From Verrucomicrobiota bacterium (lineage in GTDB: Bacteria; Verrucomicrobiota; Verrucomicrobiia; Verrucomicrobiales; Verrucomicrobiaceae): DNA of 64,000 nucleotides. A model generated the notes under the pieces. The model was not told where the DNA came from and did no database searches. It saw only the letters and a list, made by a program, of their open reading frames with translations. Shown here piece after piece: positions 11,445 through 25,063 of this stretch. Location: NCBI GenBank assembly GCA_963204975.1, contig CAUJJC010000275.1, forward strand, positions 5,893 to 69,892, read 5' to 3'. The translations under genes and the position numbers were made by a program. Numbering within the stretch: the stretch's first letter is position 1; every line of letters starts with the position of its first letter.

Positions 11445-14400
11445 TTACGGAGCCGGTGTCTGCGCCTCCAGCAGCACGCTGCCGCTGAGTTTCTTCGAGG
11501 TCAGGATCGTGGTCTTCGGAGGACCAACGACAGGCATCTCAGGCAGCAGGAAGCAGCCGTAGCCCTTCGTCGTCGTTCCATCGTTCACGATCATGCCATT
11601 GAAAGTCACCAGACGATCCAGGGACTTGTTGGGCGTCACCGATGTGTCCGTGTCAGTCAGCTTAAAGGTGCCAGTGAAGGAACCCGTGGCGCCCACCGCG
11701 AAGACCGTGCCCGCTCCAGGCGTGATCTTCAGCGTCGCTTTGCCAGGATTGAAGTTCGGATCAATGGTCGCGATCTTGGGCGATCCCGCCGTGATCGTGA
11801 CTTTGCTCGTGTTGAGCCGCGTCGAAGGGCTCGGTGCTCCACCTTCAGCAAAGATCAGCTTGGCATTGTTGGTGCCAGCCGTCAGCCAGGACGAGAGTGT
11901 GGTGACAGTGGCAGGAATGATATACTGACGACCGATGACGATGGGATGGATCGGACCGAAGCCATCTTTGTAAACCCGGTCCACGCCAGTGGTGGTGCCT
12001 GTCTTGAACCAATCCACCTTCGAATCATCCAGAGCGAAGCCTGCGGCACTATCGATGTGCAGCACAGCAATCACCGAACCAAGGTTCGTATACAACAGCT
12101 TGAAGATGCCAAGGTTGCCCATGTGCTCGATCGGAGCCGAGAAGGAAACTTTGGTTTCATCAGCCAGCGTGATAACACCCGTGGTGATGCCCGTGGGTGC
12201 CACGATGAATGCACCGAAGCCGTAGCCCTGGGGCTTGCCCGCCACGCTTTGGTCGCCCACGTCCAGCTTGAGAGCCAGCGTGTAATTGCCTTTGTAGGTA
12301 GCCGGAGTGGCCGAAGGCTGAAGAGCCATGAAGTCGAGACTCCAGGGACCATCCACCACGGTGCCCATGGCCTGCCTGTTAGCTGCATCAATGGCAAACG
12401 AGACCACGAGCGGTGTCTGACCGACACGCGTGATCGTTTGCGTGCCCGTCGGCTTGGCCACCAAGGTGTCGAGCAAGCCGTTGAGCGGATAGGACTTCGT
12501 TCCCAGAACCAAGGTGCCCGTGAATCCGCCGACCGCCGTGGTGGTGATCTTGATGCTGCCGCCGAGGAACTGGTTCATCGTGGAGGAACGACCGAGCACA
12601 CCTGTGAAGCTGCGCACCACGCCATCGCCGAAGAGCTTGGCAACTGTGATGGTGTCCCCTTGCGCAAGGGTGCTGGTGCCCGCGCGATTGGTGGCCTTGA
12701 ACGACACCGCGAAGTTCCCCACTGACAGCGCACGTCCCGTGATGGCTCCAGTCCGCGTGTTGAACGCCACACCAACTGGCAGACGTCCAATCATGAGGAA
12801 TGAAGTTGGATTGTTGGTTGCGGATACTGTCGCATTGATCACCTGACCGATGCTCACATCCGGGAGCGTCACCGTGTTCATCACCGGAAGGGCAGTCACG
12901 CTGAGCACCGCTGGAGCGCTCATCACGGCCCCAGCAGCATTGCGCACTTCCACTTTGTAGGTGCCAGCATCCGCCAGCGTAACCGCATTGACAGGCGGGA
13001 AGGTGCTGGCGATTGCGCCATCGACTTTCACACCGTCCTTGAACCACTGATAGCTCAGCGAAGGACCCACAGCAGTCACCGAGAAGGTCGCCTTCTGCCC
13101 TACATTCAAGGAAAGGCTGGCAGGCTGCTTCGTGATCACTGGCGAGACAAACTGCGGAGCGCTCGTGCTGTAGCTGAAGCTGAAGCCCTGGCGCAAGGTG
13201 TTGGTCGCCGGTGCATTGCTGCCCAATGCAAAGGTGTAGAGACCAGCGGGCAGTGTCCATGAGCGGGTAATCGAGTTTTGAGTGCTGTTATCGATGTGCT
13301 CGATGTAGCCCAGATCCTCGGCCCAGCCCACACTGCCATGGTTGTTATAGGTGTGGTCCTGCATGCCATCCTGATCCCAACCGCGCCAGATGGTGAGCGA
13401 AGGGAACATGCTGCTTGTATCGGCAAGGCGGTCCGGTTCAGCCACTGATGGCCAGGGCACCGTGGCATCGCGAGCCATCGTCACATTGAGCGTGACTGTG
13501 TCTTTCAGCATGACGGCCACCCACTTTGAAGTGTGCGTCCAGCCCACGGGATCATCACCAGGACTGAACAAGGAATTGTCCTCCCAGCTCCACGCGCCGA
13601 CGTGATCTTTGATCGAGCCCGAGTCTCCGGCTCCCACGATGAGCGTGTAGGTGTAAGGTGCTCCATTTCCGCTCTGAGCAATCTGGGTGACAGGAGCAAC
13701 CGCTTGCGCGGACCAGTTGAAGTTGAAGCCCTGGCGCAATGGATTCGTCGCAGGTGCATTGCTGCCCAGCGCGAGCGTGTAGTCGCCCGCAGGGAGACGG
13801 AAGGTGCGCGTGATCGCGGCATCGGTGGAGTTGTCCACATGGTCGATGTAGTTGATGTCTTCCGCCCAGGCCACACGACCCTTGTTGTTGTAGCTGTGGC
13901 TGTCTGCACCGTCTTGGTCCGCACCACGAAACAATGTGAAACTGGGGAACATGCTTGTCGTGTCCGCTAAGCGGCCAGGTTCTTCCGTCGAAGGCCATGG
14001 CACCGTGGCATCGCGGTCCATCTTCACCGTGAAGAGCGCTTCTTGCAGCAGCTTCACCTGCACCCACTTCGAGGTGTGCGTCCAGCCCACAGCGGGCTGG
14101 CCAGGGCCGAACAAAGCATTGTCCTCCCAGCTCCAGGCACCGACGTGGTCTTTGAACGAACCGCTGCCGCCTGGCTGAGCGACCACGGTGTAGCCATAGC
14201 CAATGCCACCACTGGCGGGCGGGCCGACCAGGTTAGGCACGAGGTCGGCAGCGGCTGTCTGCGCGGTGGTGAAGGTGAATGAGAAGCCCTGGCGTGGCGG
14301 GCTCGTTTCCGAAGGCGAGTTACTGCCCAGCACGATCGTGTAGTTGCCCGCAGGCAGTATCCACGAGCGCGTGATGGTGGTCGCCGTCGTGTTGTCAATG

Positions 14401-14912
14401 TGATCGCGATAGGCGAGGTCTTCCGCCCAGATCACATTGCCACGGTTCGCGTAGGTGTGGTGATCGTGTGCTGTCGTCGGCTCATACTCGAGCGTCGTCG
14501 CCACATCTGCGGGCATGAGGTCATTGTCCCAGTTGCTCCACAACGTGAGCGAAGGAAACATGTGATCCACGGCGGCGAAGCCACCGACATTGCCCGTGCC
14601 CGTGTAAGGCACCGTTTCATCGCGGCTCATTGTCACCGTGAGCACTGTGGGTGCTTGCAAGGTGAGTGCCACCCAACGTGAGGTGTGTGTCCAGCCCTCG
14701 CCACCAGCGGGCGCGATGCCTTGATCCTCCCAGCTCCATGCACCGGTGTGGTCCTTGAAGGTGCCGGAATCATTGGCCGTGGCGTCAATGGTCCAGGCGT
14801 AGCCAATGCCGCCCACTTGCGGGTCGCCATTGGTGATGGTGGATGCCTTTGCCGTGAGGCTCGCACAGAGCAGGAGGGCGCAGGTCATCGCTCGATTCAG
14901 TCGTCGTATCAT
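11445..14912 (-). CDS. Giant secreted protein A: 3x unknown ~170-185 aa domain + Ig I-set + cadherin-like Ig + ~385 aa C-terminal module shared with protein B
   Basis: 1155-aa ORF with a signal peptide. Three internal repeats (KDH[TV]GAWSWED...GWTHTS[RK]WV...). An Ig-like SYQWFKDGVKVDG segment, then NPTSFLMIGRLPVGVAFNTRTGAITG. Confidence 0.85.
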   Translation of the reverse strand: MIRRLNRAMTCALLLCASLTAKASTITNGDPQVGGIGYAWTIDATANDSGTFKDHTGAWSWEDQGIAPAGGEGWTHTSRWVALTLQAPTVLTVTMSRDETVPYTGTGNVGGFAAVDHMFPSLTLWSNWDNDLMPADVATTLEYEPTTAHDHHTYANRGNVIWAEDLAYRDHIDNTTATTITRSWILPAGNYTIVLGSNSPSETSPPRQGFSFTFTTAQTAAADLVPNLVGPPASGGIGYGYTVVAQPGGSGSFKDHVGAWSWEDNALFGPGQPAVGWTHTSKWVQVKLLQEALFTVKMDRDATVPWPSTEEPGRLADTTSMFPSFTLFRGADQDGADSHSYNNKGRVAWAEDINYIDHVDNSTDAAITRTFRLPAGDYTLALGSNAPATNPLRQGFNFNWSAQAVAPVTQIAQSGNGAPYTYTLIVGAGDSGSIKDHVGAWSWEDNSLFSPGDDPVGWTHTSKWVAVMLKDTVTLNVTMARDATVPWPSVAEPDRLADTSSMFPSLTIWRGWDQDGMQDHTYNNHGSVGWAEDLGYIEHIDNSTQNSITRSWTLPAGLYTFALGSNAPATNTLRQGFSFSYSTSAPQFVSPVITKQPASLSLNVGQKATFSVTAVGPSLSYQWFKDGVKVDGAIASTFPPVNAVTLADAGTYKVEVRNAAGAVMSAPAVLSVTALPVMNTVTLPDVSIGQVINATVSATNNPTSFLMIGRLPVGVAFNTRTGAITGRALSVGNFAVSFKATNRAGTSTLAQGDTITVAKLFGDGVVRSFTGVLGRSSTMNQFLGGSIKITTTAVGGFTGTLVLGTKSYPLNGLLDTLVAKPTGTQTITRVGQTPLVVSFAIDAANRQAMGTVVDGPWSLDFMALQPSATPATYKGNYTLALKLDVGDQSVAGKPQGYGFGAFIVAPTGITTGVITLADETKVSFSAPIEHMGNLGIFKLLYTNLGSVIAVLHIDSAAGFALDDSKVDWFKTGTTTGVDRVYKDGFGPIHPIVIGRQYIIPATVTTLSSWLTAGTNNAKLIFAEGGAPSPSTRLNTSKVTITAGSPKIATIDPNFNPGKATLKITPGAGTVFAVGATGSFTGTFKLTDTDTSVTPNKSLDRLVTFNGMIVNDGTTTKGYGCFLLPEMPVVGPPKTTILTSKKLSGSVLLEAQTPAP
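13161..14813 (-). repeat. Three tandem coding repeats (aa 34-216, 235-402, 415-584 of protein A)
   Basis: Repeated blocks GGIGY..T, FKDH.GAWSWED, GWTHTS.WV, MFPS.T, WAED..YI.H.DN, LP.G.YT..LGSN.P, RQGF.F. Confidence 0.8.
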
Positions 14913-14936
14913 GTGTCTTTGTTTGTGGTCTTATGG

Positions 14937-14954
14937 TTCAACGGGTCAGTTGAA
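14937..14954. other. Small hairpin in the B-A spacer that carries the same 10-mer core as the leader hairpins
   Basis: TTCAAC-GGGTCA-GTTGAA. Its complement contains AACTGACCCG, identical to the loop core of the hairpins at 19293-19330 and 24390-24427. Confidence 0.4.
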
Positions 14955-14970
14955 AGGGTTCAAAACTTCA

Positions 14971-17900
14971 TCAAGGCGTCGCCTCCAGCGTGGCACTGCC
15001 GCTCAGCATTCGAGACGTGCTGATCGTGGTCTTCACCGGCAGCAATGCGGGCAGCTCGGGAAGTTGGTAGAAACCGTAGCCCTTCGTGCTCGTGCCATCG
15101 TTCACGATCATACCAGCGACGACCCCTGTGCGTGTGATCGGCTTGTTAGGCACCACCGTGGTATCGGGATCGAGCAGAATGAAGGTGCCCGTGAACGAGC
15201 CCGTGGTGCCAGCCGTGAAGATCGTGCCAGAGCCTGGCGTGAGTGTGACGGTCACAATACCCGGATTCGGTGCCATAATCTTGCCGATGACCGACATGCC
15301 TGGGACCAGCTCAATCGTGTTCAAGTTCAATCGTGTAGCGGGACTTGGAGCCGCCCCACCGAAGAAGGTCATCTTGGCGTTGTTGGGTCCAGCAGTCAGA
15401 CCCATCACAATCGAGCCTGTCGCAGGTATCGCATAAGGTCCTCCACGAACCTCAAGATCAAGCGAGGGGAAGCCCGCCTTGTAGCTGCGCGTCGTGGACT
15501 TGACCGGCTGGGGCTTCTTCAGCCAGCTCAGCACCGATGCTCCCATTCGGAAGCCACCCGTAGGATTCACGTTCAGCGTGCCAAGCAGCGATCCTGTGTT
15601 GGCGTAGAGCAGCTTGAACATGCTCATCGAACCATCCGCTTCGATCGTATTCGAGAACGTCACCACGGTGGCATCGGACAACTTGAACAAGCCAGTCGCC
15701 ACGCCAGTGCCCGCTACTTTGAACGCTCCAATACTGTGACCCTGAGGCTTGGCATCGTCACTTTGGTCAGCAGGCTTGAGCAGCATCGCAAAGGTATAGT
15801 GACCAGCGTAGGAACTCAGCGCTGTGGAGGGCTGGCGTGCCGTGAAGCCTGCGGTGGCAGCACCATCACTCACACTGCCACTGAGCGCACGCGTGCCCGG
15901 AGTGACGGTGAAATTGACGGTCAATGCTGGCAGTCCGGTGCGTGCAATCGTCATGCTGGCGGTCGAGTCCACCGTCAGTCCTGAAGGGCTCAGGGTGCCG
16001 CTCAGCGGATAGGACTTCAGCCCCAGGGTCAACGTGCCTGTGTAGGTGCCTGCCTGCGTCGTTGTAATCGTGACTCTTCCCCCGAGTTCATCATTGAGCA
16101 CAGCACTGCGGCTCACCACGCCTTGATAGCTCCCCACTGTCCCAGCCGCGAGGCCAAAGACCTCCATCGTATCGCTCACCTGCACACTCGGGCCTGCCGC
16201 ATTAGTGGCGATCACGGTCACGTTGGATGTTCCCACCGTGGTGGGGTTGCCCTTGATCAAGCCGGTCGTCGAATTGTATGTCAATCCCAGAGGTAGATTG
16301 GAAATCGTGAACGATGTCGGGTTGTTCGCAGCCGTGACCTGCTTGCTGTAGTTTTCACCGACTCGTGCATCGGCCAAGTTAAGAGGATTCACGACCGGAC
16401 GCACCGGCACCTCCAGTTGCGCGACGTGACTCGTGACCTTTCCCGAGGCGTTCGAGATCACCACGGAGTATGCGCCCGTGTCAGTGCTCAGCACATTATT
16501 CATCGTCAGCGTGGCAGTGGTCGCACCGATGAGCGCGTTGCCGTTCTTCAACCACTGATAAGACAAACCCGCGCCAGTCGCAGTCACGCTCAAGGTCGCA
16601 ATGGCATTCGGCGCGACGATCTTCGACACGGGATGCACTGTGATCGTTGGCGCGGCTGTCACGGTGAGTGTCGCGGTGTTGCTTGTCGCACTGCCGTTCG
16701 TGTTGGATACCACCACGCTGAAAGTGCCTGCCACTGCGGGATTCACCGTGAGCGTCGCTGAGTCGGTGCCAACGTTTGTCGTGCCGCGTTTCCATTGATA
16801 ATGCAAACCTGATCCCGTGGCTTCGACCGTGAACGTGGCACTGCCGCCTGTCACCGCGCCTGCATTCTTCGGATGTCGCACAATCATCGGCGAACCCGCC
16901 ACTTCATCGCCATCCAGCACGCCGTCGCCATCGTGATCAATGGACATCACCTCACCCATGCCCGGCAGCACCCCCATGAAGGTCACGCTGTCTGAACCCG
17001 TGATCTGCGCGAGCAAGGCCGTGCGTGTCACGCCCCCGTTCGATGCCTTGTCGAACTTGTAATTCGTGCCCGTCCACAGCAACGAACGCTGCTGGCCTCC
17101 AATCAGGCCGCGCGCGATCACACTGGTCTCGCCAGTAGCTGCGCGAGCTTCGAGCAAAGCGATGTCCGCTAGCACACCCGTGTCGCTCTTATTCGTCGCC
17201 GTTACTGTTGGCCCATAGCCCACGATCAATCCGACTCCGGTATCGAAGCACATCATGAACGCAGTCATGTTCGCAAAGTCCGCAGGCGTGGTCAGCGAAT
17301 CGAGCACATAAGGATGCACCGTTGGCAGCGCGAAGCCCGTGCCATCGCTCAACATGCCAAAGCCCGAGACGCTGGTGTTGCCAGCGCGTGGATCAAACTT
17401 CTGCTTCTGATACACTAGCCGCAGCGATGGATTCTTGATGGGCTGCACTCGGCCAACTTCCTGAGGCAGGTCGATGTTGTTGTTGCTGCCTCGCGGCAGC
17501 TCGTGGCACAAGGCACAGTGGTTGATGTGAAGATTGAACAAGTCACGCCCGGTCGAAGGGCTCGCCCCGTTGAAGGTGGTAGGCAGCGAGCGCTCCAGGG
17601 TGCGGTTCGGGTTCGGGTGCAGCACCAGCGAAAACAGGTAGCCAGCCAGCAAGTCCATGTCCTCGGACGTTTGCAGCTCTCCGCCCATCAAGTTCTCGAA
17701 GGTGCCGTTGAAGCTCTGCAAAGTCGGCTTGTCACCACGCCAGTGGAAGGGCGCACTGCTTTGAAGATCGCGCAGCGTTTGAGTCACCATCGGTCCTTTC
17801 ATCGGATGCATGGTGCGAGTGCGTGTTTTTGAGTCGTGAATGACCGCATTGATCGCCAACGCCGTGGCCATGTCCCCACCGGGATCACCAAGATCCCAGG

Positions 17901-19242
17901 CAAGGCCATCTCGATCCGCATCAATGTGACAGGTGCCGCAGGACATCGTGCCATTGCCGCTCAGACGTGCATCGAAGAGAAAGCCACGCCCGTCCTTGAT
18001 CTCCATGGGAGTCGGATCATGTGAGCCATTTTTCACTTCGCTCGACACCGTCAGCGTGTTCGTATCCACGACGCTGATCGTGTTGGCTAACTTGTTCAAA
18101 ACAAAGAGCCGACTGCCCGCCTCATCCAGTGCCAACCCGCGAGGACCGCGCATGTTCTTGGTGCTGCCACTCGTGCGCACATCCACACGCGAGAGCACTG
18201 CGCCCGTCGCTGGATCAATCTTCGCCACACGATCCGATGCGAACGCTGCCACCCAAGCCGAAGCACCATCGCTGCTAAAGATCATGCTCATCGGCTGAGC
18301 GAGCGCGGTTGCCTGAGCTGTCTGGTTTGGCAGCGTATTGTAGTCCACGCCAGGATTCAAATCGAAGGGCGTCGTTGTCGCTGTGGTCAAGGCAATGCGA
18401 GTGACGCGATTGTCCGCGAAGTGGCCGTTGAGCATCGGTTCGAAGCGCGTGCGATTCAGCGCCTCCGTGTTTGGAATCCAGAGTTCTTCAGTGCCTGGTC
18501 GCACTGCGACATCGAACAAGTTCGTGCCCACATCGCTGAGGTAGCGAGTCACGGTTTGCGTCGTTGTGTCGATCTCAGCGACGTCGTTATCGAGCACGGT
18601 GTAGCTGATCCGTGAGTCACTCGCATCCACGATCAGAGCCGTCTTCGGAGGCGCGGGCAGATTTGCATTCGTTGGTGCGGGCTGATCGGGCGCTAGGCTC
18701 GCAGGCAGCACGGTGGTGCGATTACCAGAGAAAAGGAAGGCAGCGAAGAGCTTGGTTCCGTCCTCGCTCACGCACAGAGCGCGTGGATAGTCGCCCGTCA
18801 GTGTGATGGTGCCGAGATCAGCACGCGTGCTAGCATCAAAAACTCGAATCAAACCAGCACGAGCGCACGAGATAAACGCCTTCCCGTTCGCGAACACCAC
18901 ATCCGCCGGTTCATCGTTCACCTTGAGAGTGGCGATCACGCTGCCTGATGAAAGCGATACGACCGTCACCGTGTCCGACACTTCATTCACCACCCAGGCT
19001 TCGTCATTGGTGCGAGCACGCACGCTGACGGGATCAAGACCCACGGGCACCTCGGCGGTCAGAGCCATCGTTGAGGCATTGAAAATGGAAAGCCGTGCAT
19101 CTGGCGAATTGATCGCGAGCAGCTTCGAGTTGTCAGGCGTGAGCGCGATGGGATGCACCTGACGTGCTTCGAAGTGCGTGAACGTGGACTGCGCTGCGAG
19201 CGATGACGCGAGCGTGATACTGAGGACGAAGATGCGTAGCAT
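14971..19242 (-). CDS. Giant secreted protein B: YVTN-type beta-propeller + di-haem cytochrome c peroxidase/MauG-like domain + Ig I-set repeats + cadherin-like Ig + shared C-terminal module
   Basis: Start set at ATG 19242 (MLRIFVLSITLASSLAAQ signal peptide). Two CXXCH motifs (SCGTCH, HCALCH) plus FHWRGDKPTLQ (CCP-like). DHDGDGVLDGDE Ca-binding-like motif. HYQWKRG and SYQWLKNG Ig repeats. Confidence 0.85.
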   Translation of the reverse strand: MLRIFVLSITLASSLAAQSTFTHFEARQVHPIALTPDNSKLLAINSPDARLSIFNASTMALTAEVPVGLDPVSVRARTNDEAWVVNEVSDTVTVVSLSSGSVIATLKVNDEPADVVFANGKAFISCARAGLIRVFDASTRADLGTITLTGDYPRALCVSEDGTKLFAAFLFSGNRTTVLPASLAPDQPAPTNANLPAPPKTALIVDASDSRISYTVLDNDVAEIDTTTQTVTRYLSDVGTNLFDVAVRPGTEELWIPNTEALNRTRFEPMLNGHFADNRVTRIALTTATTTPFDLNPGVDYNTLPNQTAQATALAQPMSMIFSSDGASAWVAAFASDRVAKIDPATGAVLSRVDVRTSGSTKNMRGPRGLALDEAGSRLFVLNKLANTISVVDTNTLTVSSEVKNGSHDPTPMEIKDGRGFLFDARLSGNGTMSCGTCHIDADRDGLAWDLGDPGGDMATALAINAVIHDSKTRTRTMHPMKGPMVTQTLRDLQSSAPFHWRGDKPTLQSFNGTFENLMGGELQTSEDMDLLAGYLFSLVLHPNPNRTLERSLPTTFNGASPSTGRDLFNLHINHCALCHELPRGSNNNIDLPQEVGRVQPIKNPSLRLVYQKQKFDPRAGNTSVSGFGMLSDGTGFALPTVHPYVLDSLTTPADFANMTAFMMCFDTGVGLIVGYGPTVTATNKSDTGVLADIALLEARAATGETSVIARGLIGGQQRSLLWTGTNYKFDKASNGGVTRTALLAQITGSDSVTFMGVLPGMGEVMSIDHDGDGVLDGDEVAGSPMIVRHPKNAGAVTGGSATFTVEATGSGLHYQWKRGTTNVGTDSATLTVNPAVAGTFSVVVSNTNGSATSNTATLTVTAAPTITVHPVSKIVAPNAIATLSVTATGAGLSYQWLKNGNALIGATTATLTMNNVLSTDTGAYSVVISNASGKVTSHVAQLEVPVRPVVNPLNLADARVGENYSKQVTAANNPTSFTISNLPLGLTYNSTTGLIKGNPTTVGTSNVTVIATNAAGPSVQVSDTMEVFGLAAGTVGSYQGVVSRSAVLNDELGGRVTITTTQAGTYTGTLTLGLKSYPLSGTLSPSGLTVDSTASMTIARTGLPALTVNFTVTPGTRALSGSVSDGAATAGFTARQPSTALSSYAGHYTFAMLLKPADQSDDAKPQGHSIGAFKVAGTGVATGLFKLSDATVVTFSNTIEADGSMSMFKLLYANTGSLLGTLNVNPTGGFRMGASVLSWLKKPQPVKSTTRSYKAGFPSLDLEVRGGPYAIPATGSIVMGLTAGPNNAKMTFFGGAAPSPATRLNLNTIELVPGMSVIGKIMAPNPGIVTVTLTPGSGTIFTAGTTGSFTGTFILLDPDTTVVPNKPITRTGVVAGMIVNDGTSTKGYGFYQLPELPALLPVKTTISTSRMLSGSATLEATP

Positions 19243-19292
19243 AGAGTGCTTGGATTTTTGGAGATAGTGATCCCCTGAGTTGAGTTGCTGTT

Positions 19293-19330
19293 GCCCGCCC
19301 GTTGAAACTGACCCGAAACAACGGGCGGGC
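19293..19330 (-). promoter_or_regulatory. Conserved leader hairpin, copy 1 (12-bp stem, 14-nt loop), 51 nt upstream of the protein B start
   Basis: GCCCGCCCGTTG-AAACTGACCCGAAA-CAACGGGCGGGC on the + strand. 35/38 identical to the copy at 24390-24427, including one compensatory pair. Confidence 0.6.
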
Positions 19331-19507
19331 TTTGCAAGGCTCGTGCGAGCGGATACCGGCCGCGCACACAAACCGCGCCCCAGCGCAACCACGAGGGTGC
19401 GTTGGGGTGCAAAGTAGTCTTGGGCTTCAGCCCGTGGGAGCGAGGCAGTCTTGTCAACTGCCTGCGCGCATGTGCATCTGCGAAGGGCGGGAGCCCATCA
19501 CTGTCTG

Positions 19508-19909
19508 TTAAGCCACGAGCATCGCCATGCCGCATCGTGGCGGAGGCGTGGGTGGCATGATGAAAAGCTCGACAGCGGTTTCATCAGCCGCAGCAAAGGC
19601 TTGCTCAGGCAAGGCAGGGGCAATCACAATCATCATTCGCGCCTGGGCGATGAGTTCGATCTTCAGCTTCGCTGATGCTTCCTTAGGGTCCTTCTTTTCA
19701 GATTCGGTGCCCTTCTTGATCGCACAACACATGCGGCACGGATGCTCGCCATCAAAGGTCTGGCTCAGGCCTTCCGTGATGGATCCTTCCTTGATCGAAT
19801 AGGTCACGGCCATGCTCACCCAGGCTGCCGTCTGAAGCACAGCCCACTGCCCACCGATGGAAATCATCAAGGCGGTGAGCAGTAAGAATCTGGCGAAACG
19901 ATGAAGCAC
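19508..19909 (-). CDS. Small membrane-anchored Cys-motif protein (HPCxxCC), unknown family, paralog 1
   Basis: 133-aa ORF. TM helix FLLLTALMISIGGQWAVLQTAAWVSMAV, then FDGEHPCRMCCAIKKGTESEKKDPK and a C-terminal PPRC. About 70% identical over about 95 aa to the 24683-25063 product. Confidence 0.7.
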   Translation of the reverse strand: MLHRFARFLLLTALMISIGGQWAVLQTAAWVSMAVTYSIKEGSITEGLSQTFDGEHPCRMCCAIKKGTESEKKDPKEASAKLKIELIAQARMMIVIAPALPEQAFAAADETAVELFIMPPTPPPRCGMAMLVA

Positions 19910-20107
19910 GCCTTCGTCGGTAAAGTGTTTTCAAGTGCGATGCAATGAGCAAATTGACGCACGTATTGTTCCTCTTGGAGCCATCACTATCTCATCACTG
20001 CATCCGACCACCACACCAGCTGTCATCGATCTCCGCACAGGCCTTTCCAGCTCTATCGAAGTGCGACCAAATGCCGCATCGCCAGCCATCATTCATTTCT
20101 CATTCTC

Positions 20108-21412
20108 ATGAAATCCCTCCTCGCTCTCCTTTTCACCGCCTCGCTCCATGCCGCTGATTTCCACGGCTGGACCGCCGAGAGCCCGCGAGACGAAATCCGC
20201 CCGCAGTTCAGCAGCGGAGCCGACAACACACTCATCATCACACACGACGAGCGCGAAGGTCTCGACGGCTGGTTTCAAATGAGCTTCGAGGTGAAGGGCG
20301 GCACGTTTTACCGCTTCGATGCACGGCGAAAGACCAACGGCGTCACGAACCTGCGTCAGAGCTGCCTCGTGCGCCTTGTTTGGCAGGACTCGAATGGCAA
20401 CGGCGTGAAGCTCGATGCTGCGCCGGAGTATCTCACGCCCGGCCTGCCAATGCCCAGCGCCGAGCCCGAGTATCCCGCCGACGGCCCAACGGACGCCGAG
20501 GGCTGGACCACCGTCAGCGGTGTGTATCGCGCGCCGTCGAAGGCCGCGAAGGCCATCATCGAGCTACATCTGCAATGGGCACCCGGAGGCCGTGTCGAGT
20601 GGCGTGGAGCTTCTCTCGTAGCCACCGAAGCTCCCACGCCGCGCAAGGTGCGCCTCGCCACCATCCATCACAAACCTAGGGGCAAATCACCGCGCGAAAA
20701 CTGCGCTGAGTTCGCACCGCTCCTCGCCGAGGCAGCGCAAAAACACGCCGACCTCGTTGTGCTCGGCGAGACCGTGCCCAGCGCGAATGTGAAGGCAAAG
20801 CCCGAGGACATCGCCGAGCCCATCCCCGGCCCCTCGACCACCTACTTTGCCGATCTCGCGAAACAGCACCGCCTGCACATCGTGCTCAGCCTTTACGAGC
20901 GCGACGCGCACCTCATCTACAACACAGCGGTGCTCCTCGGCCCCGATGGCGCATTGATTGGCAAATATCGCAAAGTCTCCCTCCCGCCTGGCGAGGCCGC
21001 GAAAGGCATCGCGCCCGGCAAGGACTATCCCGTCTTCGACACCGCCTTCGGCAAAGTCGGTCTCATGGTCTGCTACGACGGCTTCTTCCCCGAAGTCGCC
21101 CGCGAACTCACGAAGAACGGCGCAGAAGTCATCGCGTGGCCCGTGTGGGGCTGCAATCCGCTGCTCGCCCAGGCCCGTGCGTGCGAGAACCACGTCTTCA
21201 TCGTCAGCAGCACCTTCATGAAACCGGAGGACGGCTGGATGTATTCCGCCATCTACGACCAAGGCGGCCGCCCCCTCGCCAAGGGCGAAAAATGGGGCAC
21301 CGTCATCATCACCGAAGTCGATCTCAACCAACCCTACCACGGCCCCTACAACCTCGGCGATTTTCATTCGATGATCATGAGGCATCGGCCTCCGGTGCCG
21401 GGTGGGAGGTGA
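20108..21412 (+). CDS. Secreted carbon-nitrogen hydrolase (nitrilase superfamily) with an N-terminal ~170 aa accessory domain
   Basis: Signal peptide MKSLLALLFTASLHA. E-K-C triad context: VVLGE, YRKVSLP, MVCYDGFFPE. Confidence 0.8.
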   Translation: MKSLLALLFTASLHAADFHGWTAESPRDEIRPQFSSGADNTLIITHDEREGLDGWFQMSFEVKGGTFYRFDARRKTNGVTNLRQSCLVRLVWQDSNGNGVKLDAAPEYLTPGLPMPSAEPEYPADGPTDAEGWTTVSGVYRAPSKAAKAIIELHLQWAPGGRVEWRGASLVATEAPTPRKVRLATIHHKPRGKSPRENCAEFAPLLAEAAQKHADLVVLGETVPSANVKAKPEDIAEPIPGPSTTYFADLAKQHRLHIVLSLYERDAHLIYNTAVLLGPDGALIGKYRKVSLPPGEAAKGIAPGKDYPVFDTAFGKVGLMVCYDGFFPEVARELTKNGAEVIAWPVWGCNPLLAQARACENHVFIVSSTFMKPEDGWMYSAIYDQGGRPLAKGEKWGTVIITEVDLNQPYHGPYNLGDFHSMIMRHRPPVPGGR

Positions 21413-21413
21413 C

Positions 21414-22187
21414 TCAGCGCCCGATGAACACCTCAGTGGCGTAGAGGAAGGTGACGCTGCCGTTTTGCTCGTGATTTTCAAACAGACGCCGCAATTCCTC
21501 AATCATCGGCTTGTGCAAAGGATGGCCCTCAGCGGGCGCATAGGAGCAAGACAGCAATCGTCCGCAGAGTCCGGCAAAGTCGAAACCCTGCTGATTGGCG
21601 AAGACGTGCTTCTCAAAGATGCCATCGGTGAAAAAGGTCGTCAGAGCTTCCGCATCGACGTTTTCATGCCGAACCTGCATGTAGTCGGGTGTGGAGTGGA
21701 GCAGCAGGTTCTCGTAGTCGCGGAGAAACGGCGTGCTGGCTGTCTGACGCACATTCCAGATGAAGACGATCCTGCCGTCTGGCTTGAGCAGGCGCGTGAA
21801 CTCGCTCCGTGCCCGTGTGCGGTCGAGCCAGTGAAAAGCCTGGGCGGAGACGATGAGATCCATGCTGTGGTCCGCCAAAGTTGTTTCCTCACCCGAGGCG
21901 GCGATGGAGTGGAACAAGGCACTCTGCCCCAGCATGGCCTCCGCTGCTTCACGCATTTCGGCATTGGGCTCCACCGCGAAGACCTCCGCGCCTTCATCAA
22001 GCAGGAGACGTGAAAAAATGCCTGTGCCAGAGCCGATGTCGGCCACCCGGGCACCTCGTTTCAGCCAGCCTCGGTCTTGCAACAAGGTCAGCACACCTTC
22101 CGGATAGCCCGGACGATATCGCACATAGTCCGCGACCCGGTTCGAGAAGCGTGACGTGGCGTTTGCGGGAGGATGATGCGGAAGCAT
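21414..22187 (-). CDS. Class I SAM-dependent methyltransferase
   Basis: 257-aa ORF with motif I VADIGSGTGIFSRLLL and EVFAVEPNAEMR. Confidence 0.85.
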   Translation of the reverse strand: MLPHHPPANATSRFSNRVADYVRYRPGYPEGVLTLLQDRGWLKRGARVADIGSGTGIFSRLLLDEGAEVFAVEPNAEMREAAEAMLGQSALFHSIAASGEETTLADHSMDLIVSAQAFHWLDRTRARSEFTRLLKPDGRIVFIWNVRQTASTPFLRDYENLLLHSTPDYMQVRHENVDAEALTTFFTDGIFEKHVFANQQGFDFAGLCGRLLSCSYAPAEGHPLHKPMIEELRRLFENHEQNGSVTFLYATEVFIGR

Positions 22188-22623
22188 CGAAAGGTTGCGT
22201 GTTATGTCGTGAATGATTCACAACCGGATTGGACTCTAAGAGTATGTTATTGATCGACTGATTTGCCAACTCTCGAAGCTCTGTTGGTCTTACAGAAAGC
22301 AAAACCCGCATTCGGACGTCGTCGAAATGTGCGTTCTTTTTTTGCGACAAAAGTCGAGGATCGGATGCGCGTTTGATACCAACTCATGGTCCGTCACCTC
22401 GCCCCGCTTGTGCGAGACATGATGATGTGGCTCGAGAGGTGATGAGTCGGCTGCCGGAGGCACGGGCGAAGTTCACGCCGGAGATCGTCGAGGAGGCGAT
22501 CAAGCATGACAGCCATTACCCGGGTAGGTTTCAGACGTTTTTGCCCGTAGAGGTCGGTGACAAGGCTATCGCGGCGCTGAAGCTGCGGGGCTGAAATCAC
22601 GCTGCGAATAAGGCTGTTGCGCC

Positions 22624-22944
22624 TCACTTGCTGACGAGCTTGAAGCTCTGAATGACATAATAGGCAGCCTTCTCACCGAGCGCCTTGATTGCAGACTCTT
22701 TGGTGAGGTTGGGCGAACTGGAAGTGACTTCGAGACGTGGTGCAGCGCCTTCCTTACCCAGCTTGATTTTTACAGACGTGACGCCATCGAGCTTGGAAAG
22801 CGCGGCCTTCACATTGCTGGCGCAGGCATTGCAAACGACTCCGGCGACTTCGCCTTCATAGGTGAAGACGGGTTTGTCCTCTGCGGCGGGGAGGACTGCT
22901 GTAATGGTGACAATGAAAAGGGTGATAATGGTTTTGATGTTCAT
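22624..22944 (-). CDS. Periplasmic heavy-metal-associated (HMA) domain protein, copper-chaperone-like
   Basis: Signal/anchor MNIKTIITLFIVTITAVLPAA. HMA metal site GVVCNACASNVKAAL. Confidence 0.75.
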   Translation of the reverse strand: MNIKTIITLFIVTITAVLPAAEDKPVFTYEGEVAGVVCNACASNVKAALSKLDGVTSVKIKLGKEGAAPRLEVTSSSPNLTKESAIKALGEKAAYYVIQSFKLVSK

Positions 22945-22965
22945 AGGGTTGGATGTGTTTTCAGG

Positions 22966-23661
22966 TTAGAATTCGGGGTGATCAAGCAGGGTGATCACGT
23001 CGCGCTGGAGCTTCTCACTCATGAGTTGAGCGATCTCGCTCTCGGAGTGAAAGACCTCATAGTAGCCGCGCACCCGCCCCTGCCGATCAATGAGCACGAT
23101 GCGAAGATCGTGCTGGTAGAGATCTAGCGGATTGAGCCGCTCATCGAGAGGGATGGGCTTCGCCGGAGCGAGTTTCAACTGGGTGTCCATGAAGCTCCAC
23201 AAGCGCTTCTGCTCGCCCGTCATCAGCCACCAGGGATCTCTCGGCTGGAGGCCGATTCCTTCCGCATAGGTATTGAGGAAGGCAGGCGTGTCGTGCTCAG
23301 GTGCGACGGTGATGGACACCTGATGGAAGTCCGTCCGGGCACCATGTGCGTTCTGGAGCTTCATCATCTGCCCCACCACCGCCGCGCATCCATGCGGGCA
23401 GACGGTGTAAAGGTAGGCACAGGTGAAGACCTTGCCGCGCAGGGCGGAGAGGCGCACCTCGCTTCCATCTCGATTGGTAGCAACAAGGTCGCCAGCAATT
23501 CGCGAATACACTGGCAACTGCCCCACCGGACGTCTCTTGTCGATGAGCCGTCCCGCCACCACCAGCAATGCTAGAATGCCAATGATGACGCCGATCATGC
23601 CGCCCCAGAAGCGCAAGGGCGAAAAGGGCGGCAGGGGCTCGCTTGTGGTGTCCTGATTCAT
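22966..23661 (-). CDS. SCO1/SenC family thioredoxin-fold copper chaperone
   Basis: N-terminal TM helix. FTCAYLYTVCPHGC (CxxxC) and a downstream His (FHQVSITVAPEHD), typical of SCO1/SenC. Confidence 0.8.
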   Translation of the reverse strand: MNQDTTSEPLPPFSPLRFWGGMIGVIIGILALLVVAGRLIDKRRPVGQLPVYSRIAGDLVATNRDGSEVRLSALRGKVFTCAYLYTVCPHGCAAVVGQMMKLQNAHGARTDFHQVSITVAPEHDTPAFLNTYAEGIGLQPRDPWWLMTGEQKRLWSFMDTQLKLAPAKPIPLDERLNPLDLYQHDLRIVLIDRQGRVRGYYEVFHSESEIAQLMSEKLQRDVITLLDHPEF

Positions 23662-24311
23662 CAGCGGTCAGCGATTTTAAGGAGTTCTGCTTCCGTCCAC
23701 ATCGCTGTGCGAGCCTTCTCCACATCGCGGATGGCTTTGACTTCCTCCGGTGTCACAGCGCTAGCTTTGTTGCCCCAGGAGTTACGGACGTAAGTCAGCA
23801 CGTCTGCGATTTGCTTGTCCGACAACGCCGCTCCCTGCGGTGGCATCAGAGGCGCCGCTGTCGCGAAGGGCTTGCCGTTGATCGAGATCGGTCCCGTCAT
23901 CCCGTGAAGCACGTTGCGGATGATGCGGTCCGGCTTCGGAGCGATCACCCAATCGGAACCCGCGAGAGGTGGAAACATATTGGGCATCCCAAGGCCGGTC
24001 GGTTGATGGCAGGCGAAGCACACCAGCATGTATGTCTTCTGCCCCTCAGCCATCTGTGCCGTCAGTCCATCGCCAGCAGGGGCGGAAGATGCCTCAGGCG
24101 ACGCCTCCGAGGCTGGCGTTGCGATTGCGGGCGAGGCCGTTGGGATGGCACTTGCCTGCACGGCTGGTTGCGGATGGCGAAGGTTGTAGCTGGCCTTGAT
24201 GCCTCCCAAGACAAAGGTGATGGGAAAATAGGCGGCACCTACCGCTAAGACGATGGCGATGACTTTATTGATGACTGACCAGGGTGATGAATGGGGTGCG
24301 GATGCGGACAT
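23661..24311 (-). CDS. Membrane-anchored class I c-type cytochrome
   Basis: Start set at ATG 24311 (MSASAPHSSPW..., TM helix VIAIVLAVGAAYFPITFVLGG). Haem motif CFACHQPTG with distal Met context (PLMPPQG). The stop abuts the SCO1 start. Confidence 0.8.
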   Translation of the reverse strand: MSASAPHSSPWSVINKVIAIVLAVGAAYFPITFVLGGIKASYNLRHPQPAVQASAIPTASPAIATPASEASPEASSAPAGDGLTAQMAEGQKTYMLVCFACHQPTGLGMPNMFPPLAGSDWVIAPKPDRIIRNVLHGMTGPISINGKPFATAAPLMPPQGAALSDKQIADVLTYVRNSWGNKASAVTPEEVKAIRDVEKARTAMWTEAELLKIADR

Positions 24312-24389
24312 AAAAAGCGAGTCTTTGATAGAGGTTTCAGATGCGCGAGATGCCTTTATCCGGGCATCGCGGAATGAGGGAAGAGTGTC

Positions 24390-24427
24390 GCCCGCCCGAT
24401 GAAACTGACCCGAAACATCAGGCGGGC
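24390..24427 (-). promoter_or_regulatory. Conserved leader hairpin, copy 2, 79 nt upstream of the cytochrome c start
   Basis: GCCCGCCCGATG-AAACTGACCCGAAA-CATCAGGCGGGC. The loop is identical to copy 1. The flanking GCGGATACCGGCCGC block is also conserved. Confidence 0.6.
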
Positions 24428-24682
24428 TATGCACGAACTCGACTGCGCGGATACCGGCCGCACATCCGAGTCACAGCATCACACAACCATGACGGTGCGT
24501 GATGGTGCAAAAGGGGCGATGACAGGGCCAGAGGGGTCTGAAGTAGTCGCTCGAAAGGCATCACTCAGAGCACGGAACTGCTCATGATCACAAGGGTCCG
24601 ACAACAACCGAACAAATCGTTAGACACCAATGCGAAGTCAAAGATGACCTTCCGCTCTTTGAACAACTAGGCTGGCCCTGCC

Positions 24683-25063
24683 TCAGGCGCAGCGCGGCGG
24701 CTGATGTGGCGGAGCCTCGGCCCTCGCCTGCGCGACTTGAGTTGCAGCACCGTGGTCCACTTCAGCGTCCGACGGTGCGATCACCACGATGGCTCTGCCA
24801 TGCGTGAAAAGCTCCAGCTTCTTCTTCGCGGTTTCCTGTTTCGGATCCTTTTTCTCAGACTCTGTGCCCTTCTTCACCACACAGCAGAGGGGGCATGGAT
24901 GCTCACCATCGAAGGTCTCGCTCAGTCCTTTTGTAAGGGAGCCCGCTTTGATCGAATAGCTGACGGCCATGCTGATCCATGCTGCTGATTGCAACACAGC
25001 CCACTGAGCACCGATGGAAATCATCAGAGCGCTCACGAGCAGGAATCTGGCGAGGCGGATCAC
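24683..25063 (-). CDS. Small membrane-anchored Cys-motif protein (HPCxxCC), paralog 2
   Basis: 126-aa ORF: FLLVSALMISIGAQWAVLQSAAWISMAV, FDGEHPCPLCCVVKKGTESEKKDPK, C-terminal PPRCA. Confidence 0.7.
   Translation of the reverse strand: MIRLARFLLVSALMISIGAQWAVLQSAAWISMAVSYSIKAGSLTKGLSETFDGEHPCPLCCVVKKGTESEKKDPKQETAKKKLELFTHGRAIVVIAPSDAEVDHGAATQVAQARAEAPPHQPPRCA

Follow-up and report, generated by a model that had tools for sequence, protein, structure and literature searches.

Two intergenic regions in a Verrucomicrobiaceae genome carry almost the same GC-rich hairpin downstream of a gene for a small membrane protein, and the question raised by this locus is what such an element does for the genes around it. 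The host is a metagenome-assembled genome (MAG) of 6.18 Mb with Prosthecobacter and Brevifollis among its relatives, and the stretch of it that we analysed, 64,000 nucleotides in all, is referred to here as the window. According to the open reading frame list, the neighbouring genes lie on the minus strand. In the first operon the small gene (19508-19909, minus strand; 133 aa by translation) is followed by a 265-nt intergenic region, gene B (14971-19242, minus strand), a 58-nt spacer and gene A (11445-14912, minus strand). The product of gene B is secreted and CorB-like, and combines a beta-propeller and Ig domains with a di-haem domain of the MauG/CCP/MbnH type (Pfam PF03150 and others; weak NCBIfam matches to MbnH and MauG). 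That of gene A is likewise secreted and contains CorA/MopE-like Cu(I)-binding repeats (Pfam PF18252, Cu_bind_CorA). In the second operon a paralogous small gene (24683-25063, minus strand; 126 aa, 62-63% identical to the first) is followed by a 371-nt intergenic region and by genes that Pfam and NCBIfam assign to a cytochrome c (with a transmembrane segment and CxxCH), a SCO1/SenC protein and an HMA/CopZ-like chaperone (22624-24311, minus strand). The CorA-like, MauG-like, SCO1 and HMA genes behind the small genes place the locus in a context of copper homeostasis.

The small protein has features that bear on this context. Copy 1 has an N-terminal transmembrane segment, the motif TFDGEHPCxxCC and a C-terminal PPPRC; across the family (alignment A5) the proteins share an N-terminal hydrophobic segment, the invariant motifs TFD.EH.C..C and W..LQ..AW, and PPPR placed 1-7 residues before the stop. 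We found no Pfam or NCBIfam match for the protein, and six family members compared with Pfam DUF2946 (PF11162) gave no match even at E <= 10. The protein nevertheless looks like a copper-sensing upstream ORF of the CruR/CutF type, without the DUF2946 match. CruR, the DUF2946 protein Bp2923 of Bordetella pertussis, undergoes ribosome arrest that copper relieves, whereupon Rho terminates transcription in a GC-rich structured intergenic region of 162 nt (PMC9426467). In the cutF-cutO operon of Rhodobacter capsulatus, CutF acts through the melting of a stem-loop in which the following ribosome-binding site is masked (PMC9973294). Both upstream ORFs work through long structured intergenic regions (PMC9426467, PMC9973294).

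The sequence-only reading of the window had picked out a 38-nt hairpin on the + strand as part of a conserved structured leader between the small gene and gene B, and its description of the sequences proved accurate. The two copies of this hairpin, here H3 (19293-19330, GCCCGCCCGTTGAAACTGACCCGAAACAACGGGCGGGC on the + strand, and 24390-24427), are 35/38 identical; they have a GC-rich stem of 12 bp with one compensatory T-A to A-T swap, a 14-nt loop (UUUCGGGUCAGUUU) without any change, and the conserved blocks GCGGATACCGGCCGC and GGTGCAAA beside them. Its choice of strand has to be reversed, since genes and RNA lie on the minus strand and the many G.U pairs fit only there: on the + strand they would be C.A mismatches, as is the third difference between the two H3 copies, a G.U wobble on the minus strand. 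We therefore read the RNA in the direction of the genes. The idea of a conserved structured leader stands, with its extent recast as a unit of ~140 nt (19279-19420, minus strand) made of three consecutive hairpins, H1 (19375-19410), H2 (19338-19374) and H3, flanked by conserved UUUGCAC and UGCAAAG (GUGCAUAG) blocks. On the minus strand, the two blocks noted earlier correspond to the apex of H2 and the 5' flank UUUGCAC. This three-hairpin model was derived from an alignment of the two window copies with the leaders of a congeneric genome (G002) and of a genome from another genus (G032). The folding z-scores of the aligned leaders range from -3.1 to -5.8, copy 1 having a minimum free energy of -74.9 kcal/mol and a z-score of -5.75. 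The covariance model, R1, matches copy 1 over its full length with 149.6 bits and copy 2 (24378-24518, minus strand) with 148.2 bits.

Covariation across homologous loci, which the sequence-only reading had treated as decisive for such a leader, is present. Over 13 leader sequences, in an alignment that was fitted to the covariance model and so favours the structure, 92.8% of the pair cells are canonical, compared with ~37% in slid controls, and 26/40 pairs show compensatory changes. The sequence of H1 is variable, with 11/13 pairs changed on both sides, and 9/14 pairs of H2 are compensatory. H3 alone, in an independent MAFFT alignment, is 100% paired across seven lineages with compensatory changes in half of its pairs (6/12). 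Matches to R1 occur in 6/145 genomes of the family, at the same place each time, and the leader directly follows the small-protein gene in 9/80 metagenome contigs that encode the small protein. In these six representative genomes and nine contigs its position is invariably either immediately behind the small gene or ahead of copper or haem genes; each relative's genome has one copy and the genome studied here has two. On the evidence of these comparisons, the leader is a covarying structured RNA encoded on the strand of the genes. It has no match in Rfam, and we found no description of it in the literature.

Two parts of the leader change little while the stems around them covary. One is the apex of H2, GCGG-CCGGUAU-CCGC (GGCCGGUAUCC; 19347-19359 and 24445-24457), which is near-invariant in genera g1 and g15 and in the metagenome copies. 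A search downstream for a conserved sequence complementary to this apex found none, so the apex may bind a protein or a ligand. The other is the H3 loop, and here a partner is at hand. The 10 nt CGGGUCAGUU within the loop (19306-19315, minus strand) are the exact complement of AACUGACCCG (also written AACTGACCCG) at 14942-14951 on the same strand, inside the 58-nt spacer between genes B and A. This candidate target starts 19 nt past the final base of the gene B stop codon, and 29 nt separate its end from the gene A ATG. Across a distance of 4.4 kb, the seed and target would form a duplex with a predicted energy of -17.6 kcal/mol. The target falls within a 25-nt block (CCTTTCAACTGACCCGTTGAACCAN, with one variable position) that is 24/25 identical between this spacer and that of G002, in flanks that have diverged. 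The 10-mer occurs nine times in the genome on both strands; two of these occurrences are the leader loops on the other strand and six are inside long ORFs. In this genus the target also sits in a small local hairpin, UUCAAC-UGACCC-GUUGAA (14935-14954), which is not conserved in other genera. A kissing interaction between this loop and that of H3 is therefore conceivable.

The second leader has the same loop as the first, and the small proteins that precede the two leaders are only ~62% identical. No convincing target for the loop was found in the copy 2 operon itself; the best match there, coding sequence ending ...ADR-stop at the junction of the cytochrome c and SCO1 genes, is not conserved and we rejected it. 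The operons of relatives offer a history for this arrangement. In G025, G015 and metagenome contig L075 the small gene, leader, cytochrome c, SCO1, HMA, B, target and A form one undivided operon, so the two operons of the window look like a split of an ancestral unit. Compared with window positions 11445-25063, the relatives L044, L045 and L075 have a single operon in the order small gene, leader, cytochrome c, (x), SCO1, HMA, B, A, and both split operons of the window retain a small gene and a leader of their own. A further paralogue of the small protein, the third in this genome and less closely related, heads a gene for a His-rich barrel-like protein (G000 contig C225, ~18082-18456, minus strand). 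No homologous leader was found in its surroundings; its intergenic region contains a small hairpin, CAUCGU-UCAACUG-ACGAUG, with UCAACUGAC, which resembles the target motif and not the loop. A candidate target in trans was considered as well: AACUGACCC, directly before the ATG of a 60-aa Cys-rich secreted protein (..GGCCDKAKKAGKECSHPCCVKAAKEGKVCAKCNS) on contig C311 (~12213-12401, minus strand, in G000; equivalent to L266:1501-1700), complements the leader loop and is kept in G002. Proteins of this type are widespread in Verrucomicrobiaceae, and the upstream motif is kept within the genus only, so we set this candidate aside; a second motif, AACUGACC, after the ATG of the C311 gene stems from its MKLT codons.

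A single match of 10 nt between two sites in one genome could have many origins, and the argument for a pairing comes from other members of the family. We compared the B-A spacer of each of 20 further operons with the upstream non-coding RNA of the same operon. In a total of ~21 operons, representing at least 12 sequence classes, the loop of an upstream hairpin matches the operon's own B-A spacer, and the two sites vary together. Where the loop core is the same as in our genome, the complement measures 10 nt here and in G002, 9 nt in G025 (with a G-C to C-G swap beside the core), 8 nt in G015, and 8 nt plus a G.U pair in L075. In more distant operons the sequences are different and the match persists: GGGUCAGCG in the loop and CGCUGACCC in the spacer in g13, where the hairpin stands just before gene B; GGGUCAGCA(A) and (U)UGCUGACCC in g5; GGGUCAGCAA and UUGCUGACCC in a pair from other genera, G029; and GUUUUCUCUG and CAGAGAAAAC in the more distant MAG L223. 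Within g11, three genomes pair UUUCCGCUAG(U) in the loop with (A)CUAGCGGAAA in the spacer, and the others pair UCAGCUAG with CUAGCUGA, CAGCUAGUGG with CCACUAGCUG, CAGCCAGUG with CACUGGCUG, and CAGCGAGUGA with UCACUCGCUG. Three g11 versions (CAGCUAGUG, CAGCCAGUG and CAGCGAGUG) differ at a single position, at which the pair is Watson-Crick each time (U-A, C-G and G-C). In G029 (L170), two upstream segments, GGUUUUCGGG and GGGUCAGCAA (at ~+161 and ~+200 of the small-gene intergenic region), complement adjacent parts of the spacer (UUGCUGACCC-GAAAACC), which suggests that pairing there may be bipartite or alternative.

Control comparisons indicate that the match is specific to the operon. The complementary stretches are short (8-11 nt), and the longest complement averages 8.8 nt for matched pairs compared with 6.6 for shuffled spacers and 6.6 for a same-sense control. 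Summed over 14 lineage representatives, the complement lengths add up to 129, whereas permuting loops and spacers gives 111 +/- 4, and duplex energies average -16.1 kcal/mol in matched and -10.3 kcal/mol in mismatched pairs; none of 20000 permutations reached the observed value in either case, with the proviso that some of the complementarity must have been inherited and not gained independently, because the lineages are related. In most predicted local folds the complementary stretch occupies unpaired loop positions partly or wholly (clearly so in ~13/21), while several of the 21 folds place it partly in a stem, and in G014 and G019 the folded segment was a second occurrence and not the intended site. 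The target starts 1-26 nt after the B stop codon, except in G155 (~100 nt), whose spacer has acquired an additional hairpin; it precedes the A start codon by 6-90 nt, at 3.3-7.8 kb and several cistrons from the leader, and the spacer that holds it is always C/A-rich, G-poor and devoid of a Shine-Dalgarno sequence. Some g11 spacers (L193 (G155), L148, L150 and L151) contain a long REP-like palindromic hairpin (GGTCCGCACAGTCC...GGACTGTGCGGACC) between the B stop and the target, and the target is retained downstream of this insertion.

The pattern has exceptions. We found no loop-spacer pairing in G006 or in three Prosthecobacter MAGs, L216 pairs weakly, and a pattern search for a target in G010 gave many chance matches. 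In G032 and L065 the leader precedes a gene for a TonB-dependent receptor, and G032 lacks both B and A, which requires a different role or target for its loop. The G032 loop has diverged to GGGAUGAGUUU; this variant has a single 10-mer complement, within the PepSY coding sequence, a match that chance can account for, and we rejected it. The layout in these two lineages (L043:2540-6766 for G032; L065:1818-4635), with a TonB-dependent receptor and a PepSY-like gene in place of the haem genes, recalls CruR-bfrG. For two further loop variants the pairing makes specific predictions, namely that the B-A spacer should contain AACUGAGCC in the case of L062 (GGCUCAG) and AACUGAUCC in that of L060 (GGAUCAG).

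From these comparisons, which bear out the structure of the leader, its strand, its synteny and the co-variation of loop and spacer, we consider it probable that the H3 loop carries an antisense seed that pairs with the spacer before gene A and tunes A, in a leader situated behind a copper-sensor-like upstream ORF. For the family as a whole, a co-evolving address system is in our judgement the likely reading: the loop of a leader hairpin would pair over 3-8 kb with the spacer ahead of the CorA/MopE-like gene, either in cis within the operon mRNA or in trans as a small RNA derived from attenuation. As would be expected of an attenuator-derived sRNA, the locus appears to combine a conserved leader RNA with a co-varying potential to pair with a distal cistron. 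The sequence-only reading had suggested that the element couples the small gene to the haem gene; a leader connecting the gene for the small Cys protein with those that follow is supported, whereas a local link to the haem gene is not, the loop being better explained as a seed for the B-A spacer.

We propose that the upstream ORF and leader together form a copper-responsive attenuator, probably Rho-dependent as in CruR, with H3 as its output module. The RNA bearing H3 would bind the spacer of gene A, in trans if it is released as a short attenuated transcript or in cis if it stays part of the full-length mRNA, and thereby tune translation of gene A or the access of Rho to it. Pairing could hinder the landing of the 30S subunit on the A start, which has no Shine-Dalgarno sequence, or change how readily Rho reaches the spacer, which looks like a Rho-utilisation site. 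In the version we favour, sufficient copper would cause short H3-bearing leader transcripts to accumulate, and residual A mRNA would be silenced in trans or in cis through occlusion of its C/A-rich ribosome landing region. We prefer repression of A because CorA is copper-repressible in a methanotroph (PMC3912023) and because attenuation of the CruR type stops transcription in the presence of copper. Activation in cis, for example by blocking Rho at the spacer, would be equally compatible with the sequences. The copy 2 leader, which keeps the loop without a target of its own, favours action in trans on the single B-A spacer.

The strongest competing explanation, which we nonetheless regard as unlikely, is that the leader is only the structured intergenic part of an attenuator of the CruR/CutF type, serving as a pause site, a Rho zone or an insulator, and that the complementarity has no function. 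The known CruR and CutF systems do have long GC-rich structured intergenic regions (PMC9426467, PMC9973294), and C>G bubbles resembling Rho-utilisation sites flank the leader: they occur in the 3' end of the upstream ORF, immediately 5' of the leader, and beyond H3 on its 3' side. Leaders also stand ahead of operons without gene A, as in copy 2 and G032. Such an attenuator leaves unexplained, however, why an invariant loop should sit beside covarying stems and why loop and B-A spacer should change jointly across at least 12 sequence classes. Less likely again, to our minds, is a role for H3 as an RNA processing or stability element, or as the site of an RNA-binding protein, that sets the ratio of small-gene to downstream expression; in the processing variant, the hairpin would shield the small-gene transcript at its 3' end, or a processed B mRNA at its 5' end. 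A stable GC-rich hairpin without a U-tract, 50-80 nt upstream of the next start codon, would suit such a role, and its conserved loop could be a protein-binding site; yet a protective hairpin needs no conserved loop sequence, and a protein site would not be expected to turn over to unrelated sequences in step with a distal spacer. A function in processing or stability could also operate alongside the pairing that we propose.

The co-variation of loop and spacer could, taken alone, also reflect two DNA operators, because complementary sites in RNA are at the same time identical motifs of double-stranded DNA in inverted orientation; a single regulator would then bind the same 8-11 bp motif at both sites. 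We judge this highly improbable. The motif is wholly different between genera, which would demand repeated re-specification of the protein; the upstream site lies in or overlaps a predicted hairpin loop in most lineages; and the stem of the leader hairpin of the type found in our genome covaries with G.U pairs. The register of the pairing also shifts between lineages. The 11-bp duplex of G113 is kept through an interior U.G wobble, and several of the loop-spacer pairs are extended by G.U, which preserves pairing at the RNA level while breaking the identity of the DNA motifs.

That H3 is a REP-type repeat or terminates the small gene intrinsically, as a GC-rich stem downstream of a gene might suggest, is scarcely credible: H3 is followed by AACAGCAACUCAAC, with no U-tract on either strand and no call from a terminator scan, as the sequence-only reading had anticipated, and a genome-wide search for the 38-mer at <=3 mismatches returned only two copies in 6.18 Mb, in identical context downstream of the paralogous small genes. 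Scans of the intergenic region for sigma-70 promoters and intrinsic terminators found none, and a sigma-54 promoter around UUUGCAC was rejected after a check by eye, there being no GG at -24. An invertible segment or terminal inverted repeats were rejected because gene orientation is the same in all operons examined. In the window, Rfam 15 gave no match at the gathering score, and at E <= 10 only chance-level sub-threshold matches (RsmW and a CRISPR repeat).

If the proposed pairing is real, it would add a layer to copper control and would be one of the rare conserved cases in bacteria of long-range or leader-to-distal-cistron RNA pairing. Upstream-ORF attenuators could then pass their decision to a specific downstream cistron by means of RNA, and metal homeostasis in the little-studied Verrucomicrobiota would include a long-range or trans RNA step. 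Post-transcriptional copper control of the kind seen in CruR and CutF has been described only recently, and the present locus supplies a defined covarying motif in the intergenic position. The prediction that a loop seed pairs with the spacer ahead of a distal copper-acquisition gene is concrete and open to mutational testing, and the family would offer naturally matched variants of seed and target.

Comparison with known systems places the individual parts. As with CruR, the gene at the head of a copper-homeostasis operon encodes a small protein, exported or in the membrane, that has a CxxC motif and a Pro-rich motif at its C-terminus, and behind this gene comes a long GC-rich structured intergenic region with C>G bubbles nearby. 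Unlike CruR, the small protein lacks a match to the DUF2946 HMM, the intergenic RNA is a defined three-hairpin motif with a conserved loop, and that loop is predicted to pair with a spacer 4-7 kb downstream, no such pairing having been described for CruR. As with CutF, a stem-loop stands behind an upstream ORF of the copper-sensing type whose product has a PPP-type C-terminus. In contrast to CutF, H3 lies ~175-255 nt past the stop codon of the upstream ORF, so that a stalled ribosome cannot reach it, and 50-80 nt before the next start codon; shielding of the CutF type does not apply, because H3 does not overlap the next start region or ribosome-binding site.

The route that we propose for the leader has parallels among trans-acting RNAs. 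SreA of Listeria is one such RNA derived from an attenuator or riboswitch. The same is true of rnTrpL of Sinorhizobium meliloti, which derives from an attenuator (PMC6614838), and of Rli51 (PMC11394854). Like these three, an RNA from the leader of an upstream-ORF attenuator, whose release is here proposed, would pair with a distal cistron of the same pathway; unlike them, it would use a seed located in a hairpin loop and target a spacer between cistrons of its own operon, with copper as the proposed signal.

The pairing itself also has counterparts. RNAs of the GcvB type target C/A-rich enhancers upstream of ribosome-binding sites. Long-range pairing within a single mRNA is known from the 5'-3' UTR interaction of icaR in S. 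aureus (PMC3868564). In both, a short G/U-rich stretch binds C/A-rich sequence ahead of a start codon to control translation, as is predicted here; in our case the interaction would span 3.3-7.8 kb and several cistrons, its partner is the loop of a leader hairpin, and it is predicted from sequence comparison. Of all these systems rnTrpL (PMC6614838) appears to be the closest precedent for the proposed mechanism. The parts of the system thus resemble known principles, and what is new, as judged from the sequences, is their combination, in particular a seed in a leader loop that co-evolves with a distal intercistronic spacer in a copper operon.
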